DNA of 64,000 nt from Candidatus Bathyarchaeota archaeon (GTDB lineage: Archaea; Thermoproteota; Bathyarchaeia; Bathyarchaeales; Bathycorpusculaceae): assembly GCA_963832745.1 (NCBI GenBank), contig CAWHVC010000003.1:64001-128000 (forward strand). Direction: 5' to 3'. The notes under the pieces are model-generated. The model saw only the letters and a list, made by a program, of their open reading frames with translations. It ran no database searches and was not told the origin of the DNA. A program made the position numbers and the translations under genes. Each line of letters opens with the position of its first letter. Position 1 is the first letter of the stretch. Below are positions 5,883 through 15,955 of this stretch, piece after piece.

Positions 5883-6053
5883 AGGTGTATGACGATAGGC
5901 GGAATTTAAACATTCAACCTCCCACCGCACAGTCAGGTTTTAGCATAATTGTAAAGTCCATAAACTGATTTCTTTGGTCTTTTCTTTCGCTCCTTGCACC
6001 ATGGGTTGGCACTTTCATGCAAAACCTTCCAAACTATTGAGGCTTTAAAAGAG

Positions 6054-6099
6054 GTGGCGGGTGGGGAGGGATTTGAACCCTCGACCCCCAACTTAGGAG
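6054..6099 (+). repeat. att site (left copy), displaced 3' half of tRNA-Arg
   Basis: GTGGCGGGTGGGGAGGGATTTGAACCCTCGACCCCCAACTTAGGAG, identical to 14184-14229. Confidence 0.97.
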
Positions 6100-6998
6100 T
6101 CCGTACCTTTGGGAATAAATATTCAAGATTCAGAAGTCCTTTAGGAGTCTTACAATCACCAATAGTCATGGAATTAAACTTTGAAGAGTACAAAGTTTTC
6201 TTAGCTAACAAATACACAAACAAACAGTATGCAAAAGCACAATTCAGCAATGCATCAAAATACTCAGAATGTTTAGAAAACCCCGCAAAGATGTTGTCTT
6301 TTCCAGAGTCAAAAAGAAAGAACATCCTCAAAGCTATGGTCTGTTTATCCAAGTATTTGGGTGTCTATGAAGAGTACAAAGCTAAACTGAAAAGCTACGA
6401 TATTAAATGGGGCAATGAAGACACAGCCTTTAACGGATTCTTAGCAATATTCAACCATAAGCACGACACATTACCGGATTATTATAAAGAAATACAGCCA
6501 ATACTCCACGAGAACGAGAGGTTATTTCTAAGATTCCTTGCCGTGACCGGATTAAGGAAGAATGAAGCAATAACCGCATTCAACATGATAATAGAATTGA
6601 ACAGTAAGGGAGAGCTTAGCGAGTATTACAATTCAGAGCTTCAAGTTTTAGAACATTTCAAGTATGGTAAATTATTTTTGAGAGGCACTAAGAACGCTTA
6701 CATCAGCTTTGTTTCAAAAGAACTAATCAATCAAATATGCGATTCTGAGCCAGTTACCTATAATGCTATACACTGTAGGTTTATGAGAAAAAAGCTTAAG
6801 CTGAGACTCAAGGAACTAAGAAGTTACAATAACACTTACTTAAGGAAAAATGGCGTTATCTCTGAACTTGTAGATGTGTTAGCGGGCAGAGTTCCTAAAA
6901 CTGTATTCTGTAGACACTACTTAGGGGAATCAATGAAACCGTTTAGTGCTCAAGTTTTAGGTATAGAAGCTAACTTGGAGAACTCTTTGATTCAATAA
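6054..6998 (+). CDS. int: Tyrosine integrase, C-terminal catalytic fragment int(C)
   Basis: FLAVTGLRKNEA (catalytic R), LKELR (K-x-x-R), LAGR, RHY (catalytic Y); begins inside the att repeat (VAGGEGFEPSTPNLG). Confidence 0.9.
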   Translation: MAGGEGFEPSTPNLGVRTFGNKYSRFRSPLGVLQSPIVMELNFEEYKVFLANKYTNKQYAKAQFSNASKYSECLENPAKMLSFPESKRKNILKAMVCLSKYLGVYEEYKAKLKSYDIKWGNEDTAFNGFLAIFNHKHDTLPDYYKEIQPILHENERLFLRFLAVTGLRKNEAITAFNMIIELNSKGELSEYYNSELQVLEHFKYGKLFLRGTKNAYISFVSKELINQICDSEPVTYNAIHCRFMRKKLKLRLKELRSYNNTYLRKNGVISELVDVLAGRVPKTVFCRHYLGESMKPFSAQVLGIEANLENSLIQ

Positions 6999-7851
6999 GG
7001 AGTTAAAAAAGGGTGAGGCATGGAAATATCGCTACTGCTATTAGATGATGCTATTAAGACAGCTTAGAGAAAAAGAGAAAACTCAATGCTCTAAAAGCTG
7101 ATGGGAAACAGAAAGCAGTATGGGACTTACTTACTATAGAACATAAAACTACAGCCCTCCAACTCTTCTGTTTTCTCAAAATACACCCACAAAAAAAAAT
7201 AAGTTGAGTATTCGTAGCGAAATTCGTATTTTAAACACTTATTTTAACAAAAGAAGCCAGATTTAATCCCTGTTTCAGAGGTTTTATTTCAACATCAAAA
7301 GACCATGTACTTGCCCTACCATTCTGCTTTTTCCACAGATACACCAACAAAAAAATCTGCTGAGCAGATATTGATTTTAAATTCCCCATTTTAAATTTAA
7401 GTCACAGAATAACCCCTATTTAGAACAAAAAGTGCAGGTCTTATCATTTACACAAGCGGTCATAAACAGTGGCGTTACGACCCTAAAGCGGAATGGGACC
7501 TATTTTAGGGTTGAAATATAATCCAGTCACTGGATATCCCATAAAAATGAAGTAATTGTTAAAAGAAGGTCAAAACAAGTAGCATTTAGAAATTATTTTT
7601 CGAGTAGTGAACTGTTTAGGGTAGAGATATAATTGCCTAAAGCAATACCCCTAAAAAATAAAGCAATTTAAGAAATAAGGGCAAAACAAAGCGATTTATG
7701 AGCAGTTTATTTCATGTTTTTATTTGAACCATAATCCTTTAAATTTAGTTTTCTCAAAAGGTATATTGTGCATCCATTAGCTTGATTTTTATGAGGTAAG
7801 AAGCTTACCCTTCTAACCCTCTTTCAAGCTACATTCGGTAAGGAATGAAAA

Positions 7852-8418
7852 ATGAAGAAATTTACTCCAAGATATGAAAGCGGTATTCCATTAGAGAAAG
7901 CGGTAGTCAACTTCTTGGGTAAAATGGGCATATCCAATTCTCATAACGACTTTTCACCTTCAAGATATGTGAATGATAACCACAATGTTGTCGATGTAGT
8001 TCTCAAAGAAAGGGGAGAAGACAAAGCACTTATCGAGTGTACTAATCCAAAAGAAACCACTTTTATGAATAACAGGATAATGAAGTCCAAGATTGAATAT
8101 TTTCACCGAGCAGACCCTGAGCATAAGAATCTCTGGGTTTTGCTTATTAGCTTCTTAACTTTCAGCAAAGAAATAATGGAGTTAATAATCAAAGAAGGAA
8201 TCCAGTTAGTAGTTCTTAACAAGAGAGTTACAAGCGAGAATATTCACAAAGTTATCAGGGGATTATTCACCAGCCCACTATTCACTCTGTTACGACCCTT
8301 TAGTAGAAAGTACCGAGAGAACCCAAGAAAGGCAGAACCAACCAAAACCAGAAAGACAACTTTAACCGATAAGGTTCCAGCTAAGAACAAATCATCTAAA
8401 CGTGTAAGAGAAGAGTAA
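7852..8418 (+). CDS. PD-(D/E)xK-like nuclease (element-encoded)
   Basis: LEKAVVNFL...VDVVL...LIECTN pattern resembles restriction/resolvase-type nucleases; basic C-terminal tail. Confidence 0.5.
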   Translation: MKKFTPRYESGIPLEKAVVNFLGKMGISNSHNDFSPSRYVNDNHNVVDVVLKERGEDKALIECTNPKETTFMNNRIMKSKIEYFHRADPEHKNLWVLLISFLTFSKEIMELIIKEGIQLVVLNKRVTSENIHKVIRGLFTSPLFTLLRPFSRKYRENPRKAEPTKTRKTTLTDKVPAKNKSSKRVREE

Positions 8419-8557
8419 GAGTATAGACAGCTATTACTACTTATATCAACATCAAGGGCTAAGAAAAAATCTGCAAATACTCAGAGTTATTGAGTTTTTG
8501 ACTGGTTATAATAGGAAAGTAAAACCCGAAAAATAGCAAATTTAGGATGAAAAATTT

Positions 8558-8917
8558 ATGCCAACAACAAGAAGCATAGGAAACGGATTATTGACTACAG
8601 GTAGGCGAGTTTACAGAGGTAAGGATATGCAATTAGTCTCTTGGACTCAAAACCAATGTAAAGTATGTGGAAGATTTCTAAGCAAAAGACAAATGCTCTA
8701 TTGTGAAAAGCATGGACAGGGAAGTAAAGAATATTTTATTTTAAACAAAGTGAATTATCATAGGTACAATAAAGACTATCGAAGAACACACCATAAGCAA
8801 GAACTGGAAAGACAAAGCAGGTACAATAAACAGCATCCATACATCAAAAAGGTTAGATGGTTCATTCAGAATAAACCTCAAAGTCCGAAAGTAAGACCAC
8901 ATTCTCAACTCAGTTAA
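8558..8917 (+). CDS. Basic zinc-finger protein, paralog of 11627-11983
   Basis: GNGL..TG.R...LV.WT...CKVCGRFLSKRQMLYCEKH. Confidence 0.65.
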   Translation: MPTTRSIGNGLLTTGRRVYRGKDMQLVSWTQNQCKVCGRFLSKRQMLYCEKHGQGSKEYFILNKVNYHRYNKDYRRTHHKQELERQSRYNKQHPYIKKVRWFIQNKPQSPKVRPHSQLS

Positions 8918-9181
8918 TTCCCTTCTATTGAGGGTAAAATTGCACTATGCAATACCTTCAAGGATTAATTCTTTCAGTGAATTAGGTAACTTAGAGCCTG
9001 TTTATTGAGTGTAAAAATTTACTCAGTAAATACCCCTAAAAAATGGTTATTTCACTAAAATAAAGCGTTTTGTAACCTTATATGGAGTCAAGTTGTTCGA
9101 ACCATATCACTTAAATGCTTTAGCCATCAATCATGAGATATGAGTAATAATTACAATCAATTTAGGTGTTGACTGTAATAA

Positions 9182-9394
9182 ATGCAGTCAAATAACTCAA
9201 AAAAAGAAAATACACAAGTATGCCCCTTCTGTGGTTCACGAATAAGACAAAGATGTTCATGTGGAAGCAACCATACTGTCAAAGTAGGCTTCAATGTTAA
9301 CAGGCAAGGCAAGAGACAAAGACACCTTTGCCGAGATTGCGGAAGAGTAACAATTGAAGATAAAATAATTCCTTTCAAGAAGGCAGTTACCTAA
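9182..9394 (+). CDS. Small zinc-ribbon protein (IS1 InsA-like finger)
   Basis: CPFC plus CSCGSNHTVKVG...GKRQRHLCRDCGR. Confidence 0.6.
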   Translation: MQSNNSKKENTQVCPFCGSRIRQRCSCGSNHTVKVGFNVNRQGKRQRHLCRDCGRVTIEDKIIPFKKAVT

Positions 9395-9648
9395 TGGGTA
9401 GAAAGAAAGTTTACCCAGATAACGCTTCTCGACAGCGAGCATGGCAAAAGAAACAGAAAGAGAAAGAATTACAGCAACAGATTGAGACAGCACAGAAAAC
9501 AAACAGCGACCAAGCTAATCAAAAGAAAAAGAGCTTTGAACAATTAGTAGCAAAGTGGTTTAACGGTAAGACTGTCCAGCAAGCTAAGGAAGCATTTCAG
9601 CTTTACAAAAGAACCTATCAGAGTATAGGACAGGACATGATTTTGTAG
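9394..9648 (+). CDS. Hypothetical basic/coiled-coil element protein
   Basis: TAATG coupling to previous ORF; MGRKKVYPDNASRQRAW. Confidence 0.6.
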   Translation: MGRKKVYPDNASRQRAWQKKQKEKELQQQIETAQKTNSDQANQKKKSFEQLVAKWFNGKTVQQAKEAFQLYKRTYQSIGQDMIL

Positions 9649-9662
9649 GCATCACTAAGAAT

Positions 9663-9878
9663 TTGGATGAAAGAACGTCACTCAAGAACGGTATTACAAT
9701 AGGGAATATGGAGCAGTTTCTTGAAAGCTTTGATGAGCCTATTTGCTGTCCTATATGTGGCTATTACAGAAGCGGTTTAGCAGATGAGTGCCCCGAGTGT
9801 ACATTGAAGGTAACTAACCCGAAAGCTTGGAAAGAATACCGTAGGGATTATCAACCAGCAATAGCGGTAGAGGAATAA
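9663..9878 (+). CDS. Small zinc-finger protein
   Basis: CPIC...CPEC. Confidence 0.55.
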   Translation: MDERTSLKNGITIGNMEQFLESFDEPICCPICGYYRSGLADECPECTLKVTNPKAWKEYRRDYQPAIAVEE

Positions 9879-9880
9879 GC

Positions 9881-10135
9881 ATGAAGTTTGCACACGCCAT
9901 CAGAAAGATTTTTTTCAAGTCTATTGACGCAGAGTTGGCATACCTCTACATGAATCAAGCATATCAAGAGAAGTGTATTGAGCTATTCATGAAGAATTTT
10001 AAGCTCACCGAGCGAGAATTGGAGTTACAGTCTAAGATTCTTCTGAACTATACCGAGACATTTCAGGAGTTAAAGAATGAACAAGGGCTTACAATCCCCT
10101 TCCCAGAAAAAACGGTTGTAAAATATAATGTCTAA
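9881..10135 (+). CDS. Hypothetical element protein
   Basis: ORF in a tightly packed same-strand run, preceded by GAGGA. Confidence 0.5.
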   Translation: MKFAHAIRKIFFKSIDAELAYLYMNQAYQEKCIELFMKNFKLTERELELQSKILLNYTETFQELKNEQGLTIPFPEKTVVKYNV

Positions 10136-10272
10136 AAAAGGTAAAATTATGAATCATGAAAAATGTGGATGTAATAGAAATGGGCGAGTAGTTTACTCAG
10201 ACCCAGAGCAAAATAATAATCAAGTGTCGAGGTTCAGCCTCGACTTAAGGAAACAGAGGGAAGTGAACCCGA

Positions 10273-10806
10273 GTGAGTGACCAATTAGCTAACGACCAAA
10301 TAAAAGAGCGTAAACTGATTCTTAGAAACGAAATTGAGCAGCTTACGTCTAAGTTAGGCAATCCAGACGCTTACACAACTAAAGAAGGTCAGCCTTTCCG
10401 TATCAGTAAAGAGTATGTTATCGCTAAAGAGGAACTAAACAAGAAAGTAGAAGAATACAATAGCTTGATAGAAAGCTTTGTCGTTGCGAACATAAAACTT
10501 AACAAGGTAATAACTTTCACAGATGGAAACTATACCATCAAATATATCCCAGAGAAAAACAGGTATGACTTTTACATTGGTAACGAATACCGAAAAGGAA
10601 CAGTAGCGTTCAATGAAGAGCTAACCGAGGCTACAGTGACATGCCCCACTATTAACTCAGACACTAAAGGGGAACTTGTGAATCACATCTACAAAGTAAA
10701 GATACTTGAGCCGAAAGACATCGTTGTAAAGAAAATAAAACCAAAGCCATGCTCTAAGATAGAAGAGGGTTTAGCCATGGTTAACCAAGATGTGCTATTG
10801 GGCTAA
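10273..10806 (+). CDS. Hypothetical element protein
   Basis: 177-aa ORF with coiled N-terminus and beta-rich C-terminus. Confidence 0.55.
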   Translation: MSDQLANDQIKERKLILRNEIEQLTSKLGNPDAYTTKEGQPFRISKEYVIAKEELNKKVEEYNSLIESFVVANIKLNKVITFTDGNYTIKYIPEKNRYDFYIGNEYRKGTVAFNEELTEATVTCPTINSDTKGELVNHIYKVKILEPKDIVVKKIKPKPCSKIEEGLAMVNQDVLLG

Positions 10807-10937
10807 AATGGGTTACGTTGTTAAGGATAAAGTTACAGGGCAATTTAGAAGACAAACTCCCGAAGAAATGGAAGCAAAAACAAGACCTGCTAAACCCGAA
10901 GGAAAGAGAGGAATAGCTCTTTTTAGAGGGGCAAGAA

Positions 10938-11213
10938 ATGAGCCTACAGGATAAGCAACGACAAATCAAACAACGGGACCAGAGAATACGAGAGCTTGAA
11001 ACAGCAAAGAATAGACTGATAAACAATAAGATTAGAAACGATAGAGCATTAGACCAAGCAGTAAGGAAAGCTAAAGACGATGGCAGAAAGTTCGTTATCG
11101 AAAAGCTCAAGACAGCGATACCAACTACAGCCCCAAGTTATTTTAAACCAGCAGCAAAGGCGTTACTCTCAGACCTTCAACGAATAATTAAAGATGAAGA
11201 GAAAAGAGCGTGA
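10938..11213 (+). CDS. Coiled-coil hypothetical element protein
   Basis: QRQIKQRDQRIRELETAKNRL heptad pattern. Confidence 0.55.
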   Translation: MSLQDKQRQIKQRDQRIRELETAKNRLINNKIRNDRALDQAVRKAKDDGRKFVIEKLKTAIPTTAPSYFKPAAKALLSDLQRIIKDEEKRA

Positions 11214-11626
11214 AGTTGGACATGGTTTCTAAGCTGGAAAGCTTAGAGCTTAAGCTTATCGTGATGTTAAGCCTTGAAGAACCAAACAGAGCAGGATGCC
11301 AAGGCTCTTAGGCAAATCACGAACAGGGGTCTTTATCGGCTGGTCTAAGGAACGCTATGATAAGTACATCGAGACTCATGTTTTTTATAAGGACTACGAC
11401 CTCTCACCGAGCTTAGGGAACAGCACGAAAGAGAACTTAGCGATTGGAGAAAAGAGAGGGACCACACACTTAGGGTAAGCCTACACATTACTCTTAATCC
11501 TAACTTGACTGATTACGAGAAATGGAAGGAAATAGAAGAATCATATCCTTTGGAACCTGAAAGGGTAAGAGGCTGGATTCTATCGCGGTAAAAGCATCTT
11601 AAAATTTGGAGAAAGATTAAAGAACG

Positions 11627-11983
11627 ATGAATAAAAAAAGTAGAAACTTTGGAAATGGCTTATCCTCTACAGGGTATAGAACATTTAAGAAAATCTGGAA
11701 TCCTTCTACAAAAGAAGAGATTAACGTACTTGTGGCATGGACAGATAGGCATTGTATTAAATGCAAAAGATTCCTCTCTTTGAGACAGCATAAGTATTGT
11801 TCTAAATGTAAACCAATAGAAGACGCTAAAATAGCAATTAAATCAACTACATCATGGCAAAAGAGAACAGGTAAAACATTTCAGTATTATCTTCTCATCA
11901 ACTCAGAATTTAAAGCAACAACGAAACTTAGAGGGTTTGTGAGTAGACATGCAGACGAGCTTGAAGTAGGGCAAATAGTCTAA
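11627..11983 (+). CDS. Basic zinc-finger protein, paralog of 8558-8917
   Basis: GNGLSSTGYR...LVAWTDRHCIKCKRFLSLRQHKYCSKC. Confidence 0.65.
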   Translation: MNKKSRNFGNGLSSTGYRTFKKIWNPSTKEEINVLVAWTDRHCIKCKRFLSLRQHKYCSKCKPIEDAKIAIKSTTSWQKRTGKTFQYYLLINSEFKATTKLRGFVSRHADELEVGQIV

Positions 11984-12035
11984 AGTTTCCTTATTCAACT
12001 TTACCGAATATTTTTGTTCTCGGTAATCCTTTATT

Positions 12036-12632
12036 CTATGTTAAGATTGCTCCACAATGAAGACATTTAGATTCGTCTGATTTGTTCTTAGTTCCGCAGA
12101 ATTTACAGTATATCATTTCTGGAACTTTTCCTTTAGAAATAAGCATGTTAATAGCTGTTGCCCATTGTTGACTGGTAGCTTTTATTTGGTTCTTTATTGC
12201 CATGTTTCCAGCTATCATACTTCCAACCCCACCGAATAAAATTAGTCCAGTTGCAGACAAAGCAGTACCCGTACTGAGACTCAATTTAAAGTCTCTTTTC
12301 GTTCCATCTTTGAATATTATCCCTAAAGAACCATTATCTTCTACTATAGCCATTGTCATATCTGAAATGTGCCAGCATGTATTTTCAAATTTATCCCAAA
12401 AAGTGGGAAGTTTTACTCGGCAACGAAATTCTTTGTTTGTTAATGATGCGTTTTTGCATTTAAGCAAGACAGCATCTTCTTTGTTATAGGCTTCCTTTTT
12501 TGTTTCTAAATTGTTAATTGTTGTTTGTGGAGTTGTTGTGTTTATTACTGTGGTTTTATCTTCCCATCCTAAAGCTTCTTTCATTTTACATGCCAATTCT
12601 TTTTCTTCTTGACTCTCTTCTCTTTTTGACAA
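12036..12632 (-). CDS. Cargo protein: possible PH-like domain, Gly-rich hydrophobic segment and C-terminal zinc ribbon
   Basis: GLILFGGVGSMIAG; QQWATAINML helix; CKFC...CLHC. Confidence 0.55.
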   Translation of the reverse strand: MSKREESQEEKELACKMKEALGWEDKTTVINTTTPQTTINNLETKKEAYNKEDAVLLKCKNASLTNKEFRCRVKLPTFWDKFENTCWHISDMTMAIVEDNGSLGIIFKDGTKRDFKLSLSTGTALSATGLILFGGVGSMIAGNMAIKNQIKATSQQWATAINMLISKGKVPEMIYCKFCGTKNKSDESKCLHCGAILT

Positions 12633-12764
12633 TTTAACACGAGCCCAATAATAACACTCAATTCCTACTTTTTTGTCATGAATATATTTAGGATTTATGA
12701 ATTTCTGCTAAGTTATCTTATGATAAGTCTTAAATCTGCATAGCGTAGAAATAACCATAAATTG

Positions 12765-13145
12765 CTAAGAAGGTGAGTATTGAACATAAATGTTTTCGCT
12801 TGTAGTAGGATTATACGTAAGAAGATAGAATGTGTTATCTACTCTCAAGATATTAGCACCTCGACGAATATCATTAAGAAAAGTTGTTTTAGAAACTTTA
12901 GTGAAATCATCGAAACTGATTTGTTTCTCTATTTCTGCTTGCTGTGTACTGCTAATAAGGTTCCAGTTGATAATGGTGACTCCACCATTAGTGCCAATAT
13001 CCTCTTTTAATTGCTTCTCAAAAGAGTCTGCTTTTGAAATTGCATTTGCAGAGTTATTTACAATAAATAATTGAAACGACAACGTGACTACGATTATGCT
13101 TAAAGCGATAATCACGCCAATTAGGGCTAAATATTTTCTTTTCAT
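12765..13145 (-). CDS. N-terminally membrane-anchored or secreted cargo protein
   Basis: MKRKYLALIGVIIALSIIVVTLSF signal/TM segment. Confidence 0.6.
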   Translation of the reverse strand: MKRKYLALIGVIIALSIIVVTLSFQLFIVNNSANAISKADSFEKQLKEDIGTNGGVTIINWNLISSTQQAEIEKQISFDDFTKVSKTTFLNDIRRGANILRVDNTFYLLTYNPTTSENIYVQYSPS

Positions 13146-13264
13146 TACCTTTTCTTATTTCTTTATTTTTTGGAACGCTTATACGATTTATGAATCTGGA
13201 ATAAAAATGAGAAGACTATAACTTTTAAATCTGTATAGCGTAGAAAAAGAATTGAGATGGAAGC

Positions 13265-13501
13265 ATGGATGAGAGACAAATAGTCAAAGATGCTCTAAAA
13301 AGAGAATACCAGAAAAAGATAGCTTCTCAATTAGTTAAAGAATTTAGCCTTAGTAGTGATGCAATTAGCTCAACGGAAAAGGGCGAGATACTATTCGCTT
13401 ATTCATTAGGGGCTAACCCCAACACGGCACTCGGTTTAGTTAGGTCTTTAATGGTTGAATTAGCAAACACAAAAGCAGAATTATGGCTTCAATCACAATA
13501 A
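13265..13501 (+). CDS. Hypothetical element protein
   Basis: 78-aa ORF downstream of a TTTTAAAT TATA-like box. Confidence 0.5.
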   Translation: MDERQIVKDALKREYQKKIASQLVKEFSLSSDAISSTEKGEILFAYSLGANPNTALGLVRSLMVELANTKAELWLQSQ

Positions 13502-13861
13502 ACTAATGATAAGAATTAACAGAGTATTTCAGAAAATAGAGCAAGACCAAAGTAAAAAGTTCCCTATTAAGAGGGTTAACAGTCAGTAGTAATCCAAAAG
13601 TATCATTTAGAACATTTCGTAAGTAAATTGAGACAATTACATATCGCTTCCGCTTTCGTGCGTGTCTGCACTAACGCTTTCGCTGATGGTTAAAAGAAAA
13701 GAGGTTTTCTTTTGAATTTTTCAATAATAAAAAGACAACTAAGTTTTCTTTGGAGCTTTCGCCTTTCAAGCAAGAAGTAAAGTAGTGTAGCAATAATTCT
13801 ATGTAAGCTTTTATACCACCTTAACATACTTGTCAATACTAAGAAGTAAGGTGTTTGAGGG

Positions 13862-13984
13862 ATGAGAAAGAAAATCAACATATCCATTGATGAGCAGTTG
13901 GTAGCTTCACTTCAAGCAGAGGCAGTTAAGAAGAATATCAGTTTATCAAGGCTGATAGAAAATAAACTGAAAGGAATATCTTGA
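13862..13984 (+). CDS. Ribbon-helix-helix (CopG-like) regulator, 40 aa
   Basis: Not in ORF track; MRKKINISIDEQLVASLQAEAVKKNISLSRLIENKLKGIS, directly upstream of int(N). Confidence 0.75.
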   Translation: MRKKINISIDEQLVASLQAEAVKKNISLSRLIENKLKGIS

Positions 13985-13994
13985 GGGACCAGTA

Positions 13995-14229
13995 ATGAAA
14001 GTAACCTGTCCAATCTGTAACATGGAAGGAATCTTAGAGCAAAGAGGTAACAGTCAAAGAGTATTGCATTACAAGGGCTTCATTAACGGTAAAAGAACTT
14101 ATGAAAAGCACACCATTCAGGGAGTAAATGGGAATAACTCTCTGGGAATAAAAAGTCTCGTTTTAGGCTCTAATAGTAGAAGAGTGGCGGGTGGGGAGGG
14201 ATTTGAACCCTCGACCCCCAACTTAGGAG
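13995..14229 (+). CDS. int: Tyrosine integrase, N-terminal fragment int(N)
   Basis: MKVTCPIC...H...H then reads through the att repeat in the same frame as int(C) (VAGGEGFEPSTPNLG); in the integrated state the ORF runs on to a stop at 14288. Confidence 0.85.
14184..14229 (+). repeat. att site (right copy), forms the 3' half of the intact tRNA
   Basis: Identical to 6054-6099. Confidence 0.97.
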
Positions 14230-14326
14230 GCTGGTGCTCTATCCGTGAAGAATCCGTTAGACTCGGTACCAGCCCTTTTAGCCGATAGCCAAGCGAAATC
14301 TCCAATCCGTGCTGAGCTACTCACCC
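14185..14326 (-). tRNA. tRNA-Arg(CCU) with a ~64-nt D-loop intron and encoded CCA
   Basis: GGGTGAG-TA-GCTC-AGCACGGAT[insert]A-GAGC-A-CCAGC-CTCCTAA-GTTGG-GGGTC-GAGGG-TTCAAAT-CCCTC-CCCACCC-G-CCA; removing about 14241-14304 gives a 78-nt cloverleaf. Confidence 0.9.
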
Positions 14327-14397: not shown

Positions 14398-14553
14398 CTA
14401 CTTCTTTTTTTCGAAATAAACGTGGTTTTCGTCTGCCCAGAATTGTACTGTGTCGCCTTTTTTTAGGTTTAGATGTGTGGCTACTTCTTTGGGGATTGTT
14501 ATTCTGAGGGAGTTTCCGACTTGCATGACGCTTACTTCTATCTTGAGGGGCAT
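14398..14553 (-). CDS. AbrB/MazE/SpoVT DNA-binding protein, 51 aa
   Basis: Not in ORF track; MPLKIEVSVMQVGNSLRITIPKEVATHLNLKKGDTVQF. Confidence 0.85.
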   Translation of the reverse strand: MPLKIEVSVMQVGNSLRITIPKEVATHLNLKKGDTVQFWADENHVYFEKKK

Positions 14554-15214: not shown

Positions 15215-15955
15215 ATGATTGAAATACGGCAAACACCTGAAGGCAACGCTTTGATTCTGACTTCTGTCTCCGAATTCTGTGGCGCCATGGGATACTGCGA
15301 AGTACGCGTCCAACATTTCCTAAAAGGCATAAAGGCGCCCCAAACTAAAATCACATTGGATGGTATAGAGTCACATGAAAAAGAAGAAGCCTACGAACGT
15401 GAACACTTCAAGTTTGAACCAGTCACCAAAGAAGCACTATCTGATTTTACTAAAGACATAGAGTTTGCCCGCGAAGGTCTCTATACAAGGTTTCAGCGGA
15501 CACTTGTTTTCGGCGAAGAAACCCTATCGATACTGGTTTATGGTCGCGCTGATAAAGTGATGCGGAGCCAAGGAACCCTGATTGTGGAAGATTCCAAGTA
15601 CCCAACAAGCCGTGACAAGTACCAAGACAAGTTTGAACCGTTTGATGACCAAAAACTTCAGACGCTACTGTATTTGAACTCAAGTTTTAGCGAGAAAGGC
15701 TTAAGCTCGCAAGGGGACTGCTTTGAAATTAAATGCGAAAAACGTGCCTGGATAATCAACATTAAAGATAAGGCGACTCTTGAAAGCGTTAAAGTATTTC
15801 AGGGCTATCAAACAAAGCAAGCAGAAGATTTTCTTAACAAGAATCTAAGTAAGTTTGCGTTGTTGGTTTTAGGTAAAATGGAGCCTAAGCATCACGGGAA
15901 CCCCCGCAAGTGCCGTAGCTGTCGTTTTGATAACTGCCAATTTAGAACTATTTGA
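15215..15955 (+). CDS. Solo Cas4-like PD-(D/E)xK exonuclease with predicted 4Fe-4S staple
   Basis: N-terminal Cys (YCE), GRAD...VEDSK, QTLLY, C-terminal CRSCRFDNC. Confidence 0.75.
   Translation: MIEIRQTPEGNALILTSVSEFCGAMGYCEVRVQHFLKGIKAPQTKITLDGIESHEKEEAYEREHFKFEPVTKEALSDFTKDIEFAREGLYTRFQRTLVFGEETLSILVYGRADKVMRSQGTLIVEDSKYPTSRDKYQDKFEPFDDQKLQTLLYLNSSFSEKGLSSQGDCFEIKCEKRAWIINIKDKATLESVKVFQGYQTKQAEDFLNKNLSKFALLVLGKMEPKHHGNPRKCRSCRFDNCQFRTI

Follow-up and report, generated by a model that had tools for sequence, protein, structure and literature searches.

The stretch of DNA analysed here (the window, 64 kb) belongs to G000, a genome of 3.02 Mb in 5 contigs, and the names of its integrase homologues (Candidatus Bathycorpusculum and Bathyarchaeota) place the host, a soil archaeon, in the class Bathyarchaeia. 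Positions 6054-14229 of the window hold an element that is inserted in a tRNA-Arg(CCT) gene and is probably a captured, decaying cryptic integrated element (CIE). The element is bounded by two perfect direct copies of a 46-nt repeat, 8130 bp apart, at 6054-6099 (attL) and 14184-14229 (attR), neither attachment (att) site being assigned to a strand. The repeat corresponds to the 3' part of a minus-strand tRNA gene at 14185-14326; attR lies within the 3' exon of this gene, and the attR side restores a complete tRNA that folds as a cloverleaf, indicating that a tRNA gene was the integration target. An empty attB, which a sequence-only reading of this DNA had suggested looking for, is present in the congener G448. 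(G labels denote genomes and L labels the loci compared, L023-L101 being metagenome loci.) At the orthologous site of G448 the syntenic left flank (76-81% nucleotide identity), the tRNA and the right flank (78-80%) are all retained, the ~2.75 kb between the left flank and the tRNA are without any element gene, and the sole "integrase" matches are the translated tRNA sequence itself. The region 6054-14229 is thus a real insertion of 8,130 bp into tRNA-Arg(CCT).

The target tRNA bears an intron and was missed or mis-called by standard tools. ARAGORN in its default mode returned 0 tRNAs across the window, Rfam at the gathering threshold found nothing at 14185-14326, and ARAGORN with introns allowed (-i) labelled the gene tRNA-Pro(TGG) with an intron. 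We read it as tRNA-Arg(CCT) with an intron of ~64 nt (about 14241-14304) in the D-loop, a non-canonical position, because CU-CCU-AA forms the anticodon loop, minimum-free-energy folding gives a cloverleaf whose D-loop carries an inserted hairpin, and the intron-less tRNA-Arg(CCT) of G448 is 98% identical over the 3' exon. In addition, ARAGORN found no other Arg(CCT) gene in G000, while a Pro(TGG) gene is present elsewhere in the genome. The tRNA-Pro(TGG) label was accordingly rejected as a mis-call. In a genus-wide DNA search, some genomes matched through the tRNA intron region and many only over the ~63-nt 3' exon.

The two ends of the element carry the two parts of a split SSV-type "suicidal" tyrosine integrase. 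The catalytic part, Int(C), lies at 6054-6998 (+, ORF listed from 5994), and the N-terminal zinc-finger part, Int(N), at 13995-14229 (+, ORF to 14288), where it runs into attR; Int(N) was recognised from the list of open reading frames (ORFs) and by alignment, and carries an N-terminal Cys motif. The SSV-type domain is evident from the match of the ORF 5994-6998 to PF16795 (Phage_integr_3) at 1.9e-10 (41.3 bits, the cut-off being 27), and the same ORF matched phrog_5127 "integrase" at 3e-14. The att repeat is translated as AGGEGFEPSTPNLG in both Int(N) and Int(C), in the same frame, which places the attachment site inside the integrase gene. The alignment of Int(C) to homologues, with identities of up to 85%, is unbroken. 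For 6 of the 28 aligned homologues the N-terminal Cys motif and the catalytic part are combined in one unsplit ORF of 366-419 aa, and many split homologues begin with translated tRNA sequence. In this 28-sequence alignment, R168, K213, R256, R279 and R287 are invariant and H288 and Y289 nearly so, which makes them candidates for the catalytic residues (R, K, R/H, R, Y) of tyrosine recombinases. There were no relatives of Int(C) in IMG/VR and no tblastn matches in the GenBank phage or PLSDB plasmid collections; the latter result suggests that characterised integrases are only distantly related to this clade.

Directly upstream of Int(N), at 13862-13984 (+), lies a gene for a ribbon-helix-helix (RHH) protein, which matched DUF6364 at 3e-07 and, weakly, CopG/RHH_1. 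Homologues with 74-83% identity adjoin Int(N) in L023, L024 and L117, and a differently sized RHH-like ORF precedes Int(N) in L015 (by eye), suggesting that the RHH gene travels with the integrase module. Elsewhere in G000, a second SSV-type integrase C-terminal part (C2:118011-118810, -) has 37-42% identity to Int(C); it is apparently frameshifted, appearing as two adjoining tblastn pieces, and none of the other genes of the window's element is nearby.

The interior of the element is composed mainly of small plus-strand genes. The AlphaFold2 (AF2) model of o188 (7852-8418, +; pLDDT 79.8) gave EcoT38I, MspJI, AF1548, NucS and Hjc, all PD-(D/E)xK nucleases, as its best Foldseek matches in the PDB (E ~1e-4, TM ~0.4), suggesting a nuclease-like fold. 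The residues E15, D48 and E62-x-T-N-P-K67 are conserved. Homologues of o188 (20 at E <= 0.01 among 68 candidates) are 207-251 aa long, and the copy in the window is truncated. Several of the following genes encode zinc-finger or zinc-ribbon proteins. The paralogues o119 (8558-8917, +) and o118 (11627-11983, +) are 41% identical over 56 aa; o119 also has 58% identity to a 147-aa protein of the congener G375, and o118 is like o119 in its N-terminal part and like an 84-aa protein of the congeners G375 and G471 in its C-terminal part. The stand-alone zinc ribbon o70 (9182-9394, +) resembles the N-terminal zinc-binding domain of the IS1/IS1595 type (NF050000 at 7.6e-07; its score of 29.6 bits exceeds the cut-off of 28), and has homologues in 5 of the 9 loci compared. 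A Cys4 motif is present in the C-terminal half of the gene formed by o84a (9394-9648, +) and o71 (9663-9878, +). Two further genes code for small helical proteins: o84b (9881-10135, +) is 36% identical over its full length to an 85-aa protein of G375, and o91 (10938-11213, +) is 30-31% identical to a 96-aa protein of G375 and a 109-aa protein of G471. Between o84b and o91 lies o177, and between o91 and o118 the remains of a gene for a protein of 130-145 aa (11283-11632, +), of which o60 (11296-11478) is one fragment; both are discussed below.

Two genes occupy the opposite strand. The product of o198 (12036-12632, -) has a C-terminal zinc ribbon (Zn_Ribbon_1 at 2e-4), is 65% identical over 145 aa to the product of a gene in the 4.5-kb element L015 of genome G020, and clusters also with a 79-aa ORF of L117. 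For o126 (12765-13145, -), which has an N-terminal hydrophobic segment, no relatives were found in Pfam, PHROGs or the locus comparisons. By eye, one hydrophobic segment each was seen in o126 and o198 and none was noticed in the other ORFs, and zinc motifs were seen in o119, o70, o71, o118, o198 and Int(N). No listed ORF other than Int(C) exceeds 198 aa.

These observations bear out most of the sequence-only reading, which had described perfect 46-bp att repeats, a split integrase, an RHH regulator, a nuclease-like ORF, at least five small ORFs with Cys-based zinc motifs and two opposite-strand genes. It had also seen no primase, helicase, Rep, packaging ATPase, capsid or relaxase, and the element ORFs indeed gave no match to any of these, or to a replicase, in scans with Pfam, PHROGs, NCBIfam and PADLOC. 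The primase, helicase and P-loop families that would correspond to RepA and PlrA of the plasmids pSSVi and pSSVx were absent from the Pfam, PHROGs and NCBIfam results; neither PHROGs nor Pfam gave a match to the small major capsid protein (with two hydrophobic helices) or the DnaA-like AAA+ ATPase of fuselloviruses and other spindle-shaped viruses, and an ORF of ATPase size is missing. Likewise, the small terminase (TerS), large terminase (TerL) and capsid families of Pfam and PHROGs had no match among the element proteins, and PADLOC matched none of them to a defence system. Two element proteins, o188 and o177, were folded, giving the nuclease fold and a beta-sandwich that could not be assigned. 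Judged by Pfam, PHROGs, NCBIfam, PADLOC and these two folds, the element has an integrase and no viral, conjugative or transposon hallmark gene, as is characteristic of CIEs. The inserted state, the empty site in the congener and the lack of anything recognisable for replication, virion or transfer agree with the cryptic integrative element that had been proposed.

The gene o177 may be regarded as the hallmark of the element. In the window it is split by a +1 frameshift near 10795 into o177 (10273-10806, +) and o54 (10790-10954, +), which together cover 10273-10954, and its homologues are single ORFs of 190-245 aa. The AF2 model (pLDDT 76.7) shows two long helices that form an N-terminal hairpin, followed by a beta domain of eight strands; the C-terminal tail is basic. 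The family is rare: 19 matches at E <= 0.001 were obtained among 1.84 billion cluster representatives, and 7 of 332 genomes of the taxonomic family, G000 included, carry a member. In a gene-content comparison of nine loci, o177 was the sole gene present in all eight related elements (window, L023, L104, L113, L114, L115, L116 and L117), which have three types of integrase among them; among L001-L101 the o177 profile matched only L023. No relatives were found in GenBank phages, PLSDB plasmids or IMG/VR, no longer fused forms were found by search, and ESM Atlas gave no usable match. The o177 profile returned one chance-level row from the PDB sequences. When 16 family members were compared with PHROGs and Pfam at E <= 5, no PHROG matched more than one member, and ABC_tran_CTD was the single Pfam family matched by two, with weak E-values. 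At the C-termini of the homologues a basic stretch is followed by h-x-x-F-[LF], and this tail is possibly a PIP-box-like motif that binds PCNA. A complex prediction with the o177 tail and PCNA of G375 gave a score of 0.00 and "no answer", which counts neither for nor against PCNA binding. These results suggest that the o177-family elements form a small family of few relatives that, in this narrow sense, was previously undescribed.

The gene o177 is also central to the idea that the element is a defective provirus of undescribed, very small archaeal viruses, with o177 as capsid or nucleocapsid protein and o198 and o126, taken to be membrane-associated, as envelope or entry proteins. It is the one gene kept throughout the group, its eight-strand beta domain and basic tail would suit such a role, and the dense operon of small zinc-finger ORFs resembles those of archaeal viruses. 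Additionally, an ESM Atlas feature search with the 154-aa core protein of G375 gave weak matches (0.86) to viral hypothetical-protein clusters. However, PHROGs and Pfam contain no structural match, the Foldseek search with the whole o177 model against PDB and BFVD returned nothing at E <= 0.001, and its top rows were Ig- or cadherin-like rather than capsid folds. IMG/VR holds no relatives of o177, o188 or the integrase, GenBank phage records hold none of o177 or Int(C), no packaging ATPase was found in the element, and o198 and o126 are absent from the elements of G375 and G471. We therefore consider a viral origin of this kind unlikely.

Syntenic elements, which the sequence-only reading had proposed to look for in metagenomes, were found in the two congeners G375 (L104) and G471 (L113). 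Both contain a core module with homologues of o188, o84a+o71, o84b, o177+o54, o118, o91 and o60, with 30-58% identity, and G375 has a homologue of o119 in addition. Of 401 genomes sampled from the class, 2, G000 among them, carry the o188 family. The integrases of G375 and G471 are unsplit and unrelated to that of the window, one being a 415-aa PF00589-like recombinase (G375) and the other a 371-aa tyrosine integrase (G471). The element of G375, the only one of the two with estimated ends, is ~8.9 kb long and has no known hallmark gene. It sits (contig C14; 5721-6794, 15456-15698) in the 3' end of a gene for a THUMP-domain methyltransferase, the last ~19 codons of which are duplicated and diverged, so that no exact DNA repeat of at least 12 nt is left. 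A further relative, L023 (10001-19611), is a 9.6-kb element in the same tRNA-Arg site with an integrase 85% identical to that of the window. Genes like o177 and o70 are retained there, along with one for a 167-aa protein in which a D...E-C-K motif was seen by eye. The cargo of L023 includes a repeat-rich, putatively secreted protein of 1051 aa and, judged by eye alone, ORFs of Nudix-like and 2'-5' RNA-ligase-like type.

Two further o177 elements, L114 (G483:C5, about 7.1-16.9 kb) and L115 (G482:C5), are integrated, ~10 kb long and near-identical. In both, a gene for a large terminase (phrog_2 at 3e-25; PF03237 at 1.5e-06) shares the strand of the o177 homologue, which lies ~150 nt upstream of it, and this hints weakly at a role in packaging. 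They also encode a topoisomerase-like protein (phrog_6247 at 3e-44), two o70-like zinc ribbons, a tyrosine integrase of 366-382 aa and a GHKL ATPase; there are no capsid genes. Terminases also occur in G000 beyond the window, as four solitary pairs of a helix-turn-helix (HTH) gene and TerL (C3:49347-51204, C3:444909-446751, C3:179086-181021 and C4:about 142540-143602). In each, an HTH protein of ~145-165 aa, Myb/SANT-like by eye, is encoded directly upstream of TerL (PF03237, phrog_2), and the surroundings are ordinary-looking host genes with no capsid or portal seen. A TerS role for o177 through these terminases of G000 was rejected, as each of the four TerL genes has its own HTH partner, which is not o177-like.

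These terminase genes bear on the proposal of a satellite that hijacks a head-tailed helper virus, with o177 as a small-terminase-like adaptor steering the large terminase of the helper to the element DNA. The place of o177 just upstream of TerL in L114 and L115 is the usual one of a small terminase, G000 itself has four large terminase genes, and the long helical hairpin of the predicted o177 structure may be likened to the oligomerisation cores of small terminases. On the other hand, L114 and L115 are near-identical and hence amount to one observation, o177 has no sequence or fold match to any small terminase, and a full beta-sandwich per monomer is not known from small terminases. The HTH partners of the G000 terminases, the lack of capsid genes near them and the fact that no helper provirus was identified also argue against this scheme, which we regard as quite improbable. 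The one weak lead for the helper-dependent satellite raised by the sequence-only reading is thus the position of o177 in two near-identical elements.

Comparison with G375 and G471, where each gene except the o188 orthologue of G471 is one ORF, revealed that the copy in the window has several defects. The o188 gene stops at the TAA at 8416-8418, and its conserved C-terminal coding part persists in another frame as a remnant at about 8429-8537 (+), where the sequence matches the C-termini of the homologues and the tblastn frame differs from that of 7852-8418. The ORFs o84a and o71 correspond to a single ORF of 154/155 aa in G375/G471, and tblastn places a change from frame 1 to frame 3 at 9639, so that 9394-9878 is one gene split near this point. 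The single gene of the relatives that is represented by o177 and o54 is broken as described above. In the 130-145-aa core gene at 11283-11632, tblastn with the G375 and G471 proteins detected three frame changes with intervening stops, and there are internal stops in every frame. In total, about six frameshifts or stops fall in at least four genes of the module over ~2.3 kb, three of them within 350 nt, and ORFs of at least 100 aa cover 49.5% of the element as against 83% of the rest of the window. We think that the breaks are real mutations because the inspected ones are not at long homopolymer runs and the coding density elsewhere in the window is normal. The window copy is therefore likely to be partly degraded, with at least four core genes broken, a feature that the sequence-only reading had missed. 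The many ORFs below 200 aa that it described do exist, but several of them are probably not separate genes, since they are fragments of genes that are single ORFs in the orthologues.

The integrase module has a much wider distribution than the core. A match to Int(C) was present in 16 of 41 related genomes, G000 included; 136 relatives at E <= 0.001 were found among 1078 candidate proteins, and a metagenome scan yielded 408 relatives, from which 79 loci were kept. A search of the loci for att-type repeats gave 23 rows, including the window and one place recorded twice (L006/L013), and hence 21 other places; L006/L013 was dropped from the gene-content comparison, as its spacing of 1,672 bp indicates that it is probably a remnant. 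The integrase is the sole gene common to the window's element and the 20 other att-bounded elements, all of 3.3-9.6 kb. At E <= 1e-4, the genes that the window has in common with these are, besides the integrase, o198 (found in L015) and the RHH gene (found in L023) and no others. By these comparisons the integrase module is promiscuous, being common to hundreds of otherwise unrelated small elements. None of the 79 metagenome loci, many of which are partial contigs, had identical contig ends of 15-200 nt.

Two sets of these loci deserve separate mention. L043, L055, L083 and L091 are a separate family of att-bounded elements of 6.1-6.4 kb with SSV-type integrases, to which L042 (9.5 kb) partly belongs. 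They have six or seven further genes in common (~85, 100, 110, 125, 245 and 310-350 aa), which are unrelated to the window's element. L015 (G020:C126, 2018-6583) is a 4.5-kb element bounded by 53-nt repeats that are 96% identical. It contains a split SSV-type integrase, an RHH gene, the o198 homologue and three other minus-strand genes, two of them coding for membrane proteins by eye, and is among the smallest complete elements found, with only L025, L012, L019 and L069 (3.3-4.3 kb) being smaller.

An ORF-poor stretch of ~850 bp at 6999-7851, found by repeat and ORF analysis and assigned to no strand, has no ORF above 52 aa and contains a 111-nt tandem duplication. The two copies (7504-7578 and 7615-7689) lie upstream of o188, and a third, partial copy (9003-9044) lies upstream of o70; the repeats have ATA(T/C)CCC..AAAAAT in common and may possibly represent a promoter, operator or origin region. 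A scan for bacterial promoters and terminators gave 23 promoter-like sites against 22.3 expected, a result that says little for an archaeal host. The small ORF o50 (10128-10280, +) had no relatives in Pfam, PHROGs or the locus comparisons, and o78 (13265-13501, +) had none in Pfam or PHROGs. Just beyond attR lie a MazE/AbrB-type antitoxin-like ORF (14398-14553, -; PF04014 at 4.5e-10) and a PD-(D/E)XK nuclease ORF (15215-15955, +; PF12705 at 8e-06), which has Cys residues clustered at its C-terminus and by eye resembles Cas4. The region with the nuclease ORF is kept at 80% nucleotide identity in G448 and is therefore host backbone. A crude, simple k-mer script found no CRISPR arrays with at least 4 repeats in G000.

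Taken together, our results favour, with a probability of roughly 70%, the interpretation that 6054-14229 is a captured and decaying cryptic integrated element of a Bathyarchaeia archaeon. The element would have entered the 3' part of tRNA-Arg(CCT) through site-specific recombination by its PF16795 integrase. As the attachment site lies within the gene of the integrase itself, integration would have split this gene, with Int(C) now on the left and Int(N) on the right, and would have duplicated 46 nt of the tRNA. The element may be viewed as a mosaic of three modules, namely the widespread RHH-integrase module, a plus-strand core of about nine genes, which in congeneric genomes occurs with other integrases and includes the nuclease-fold protein, several putative zinc-ribbon DNA-binding proteins and o177, and the two minus-strand genes, of which o198 is also found in other small elements. 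With its integrase split, the element could leave only if a related, intact integrase were supplied in trans, and at present it is most likely an immobile passenger that is replicated with the chromosome. Most likely, the intact family would live as a small episome, similar to a plasmid, that encodes no polymerase, helicase or virion and would rely on host replication proteins recruited by its own DNA-binding proteins, with o177 as the essential factor.

Several points weigh against this interpretation. The perfect att repeats and the integrase halves, RHH gene and o198, which all look intact, indicate that the insertion is not old and that excision in trans might still occur. In principle, errors of assembly or variation within the population might account for the frameshifts, and the relatives are not absolutely intact either, as the o188 orthologue of G471 also appears to be split (207 + 59 aa). 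A divergent capsid or replication-initiator fold among the element proteins is possible as well, given that folds were predicted for two proteins and that o177 was searched as a whole model, its beta domain included. A further, unlikely alternative is that the element is intact and active. The frameshifts would then be errors of the assembly or of its consensus, or gene splits that are tolerated because translation re-initiates where start codons overlap. In favour of this are the perfect att repeats, the intact integrase halves and the ATG of o54, which overlaps the end of o177, and the small number of contigs in G000 suggests a long-read assembly. However, the clustering of about six disruptions in ~2.3 kb amid normal coding density, the absence of long homopolymers at the inspected breaks and the stops in every frame of the o60 gene leave little room for an intact copy. 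It is scarcely credible that the element is instead what deletion has left of some larger virus or plasmid of a known type. The G483/G482 relatives are indeed larger, at ~10 kb, with terminase, topoisomerase-like and GHKL ATPase genes added, but the closest syntenic relative with estimated ends, that of G375, is about equal in size and likewise without hallmark genes, and no record of the phage and plasmid collections showed similarity. The size and gene content of the G375 element also lend no support to the reduced provirus that had been suggested.

The captured, decaying element is of a kind that has been described in other archaea. CIEs were defined for Thaumarchaeota, with sizes of 2.6 to 98 kb (Krupovic et al., 2019, PMC6563490). 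According to the sections of that paper drawn on here, one of them has an SSV1-like split integrase, and small ones lack a replication protein. CIEs such as NitEve-E3 and NitUzo-E2 are similar to the window's element in being small and in having an integrase and no viral or conjugative hallmarks (PMC6563490, same sections). They also occur in mesophilic archaea, of a sister class. However, the host class of the window's element is Bathyarchaeia, its core genes (o177 family, o188 nuclease and zinc-ribbon proteins) differ from the Thaumarchaeota CIE gene set, and NitEve-E3 encodes an MCM helicase, which is absent here. NitKor-E1 is described there as containing only TerS-TerL, a PD-(D/E)XK nuclease and a tyrosine integrase, and its terminase function is called enigmatic. 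It is similar to the G483/G482 elements, which also have a large terminase and a tyrosine integrase and no capsid genes, and to the four HTH-TerL pairs of G000. Unlike NitKor-E1, the window's element is without a terminase, and in G483/G482 the gene upstream of TerL is an o177 homologue and not a recognisable TerS.

The split integrase also has precedents. Integration by "suicidal" (type I) PF16795 integrases destroys their gene, and excision needs an intact integrase from elsewhere, as set out in the relevant sections of PMC8371274. SSV fuselloviruses and the plasmid families of pTN3 and pT26-2 share with the window's element the integrase family, the att site inside int, the tRNA target, the flanking by Int(N) and Int(C), and the copy that is trapped unless an intact integrase is supplied; SSV has capsid genes, pTN3 and pT26-2 have large replication and ATPase genes, and the hosts are thermophiles, and the window's element differs in all these respects (PMC8371274). 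The same sections mention pSSVi.

Like pSSVi and pSSVx, the window's element is small, has an SSV-type integrase and a CopG/RHH regulator, is integrated in a tRNA gene and lacks its own capsid genes. Those plasmids are satellites of fuselloviruses in Sulfolobus, 5-6 kb in size, which encode a pRN-type RepA primase-helicase and PlrA, and pSSVi integrates in tRNA-Arg. In contrast, the window's element has nothing comparable to RepA or PlrA in Pfam, PHROGs or NCBIfam, and no helper virus is known for it. An analogy with the bacterial phage satellites SaPI/PICI, integrase-bearing islands of ~8-15 kb without a full set of virion genes, would be possible if o177 redirects packaging. However, the primase-replicase, TerS family and capsid-remodelling genes of SaPI/PICI were not detected in the window's element, which has no known helper and a host from another domain.

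For Bathyarchaeia, the sections of PMC10541130 drawn on here describe tailed, filamentous and spindle-shaped viruses and nothing like the window's element. A limited search of titles and abstracts found no description of small integrated elements of the CIE class in Bathyarchaeia. This kind of element, a CIE with a suicidal integrase, is already described (PMC6563490 and PMC8371274, in the sections drawn on here), and the family defined by o177 appears to be new. The suggestion of a possibly undescribed family thus holds for the core module and o177, which have few relatives, but not for the kind of element.

The finding has several implications for Bathyarchaeia. Suicidal integrases, characterised mainly in thermophiles, are apparently common in this class as an exchangeable module for many unrelated elements of 3-10 kb, and one such family is now defined by a hallmark gene of unassigned fold family. 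It is doubtful, though conceivable, that the o177 family is a new lineage of minimal archaeal replicons that have no polymerase, helicase or capsid and freely swap integrase modules, with o177 as a novel kind of replication initiator recruiting the host replisome or as a packaging adaptor through which the element travels in the capsids of head-tailed viruses; the window's copy would then be a member that was trapped recently and is decaying. If o177 were a packaging adaptor in the position of a small terminase, these would be the first satellites known for tailed viruses of archaea. As regards annotation, some half of the small ORFs of the segment would be fragments or ORFans of a mobile element and not host genes. 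The window's copy may serve as an example of gene capture, in which the way an element integrates keeps it trapped in the chromosome; the copy is seen early in its decay, and its family raises the question of how elements without a replicase replicate and spread.

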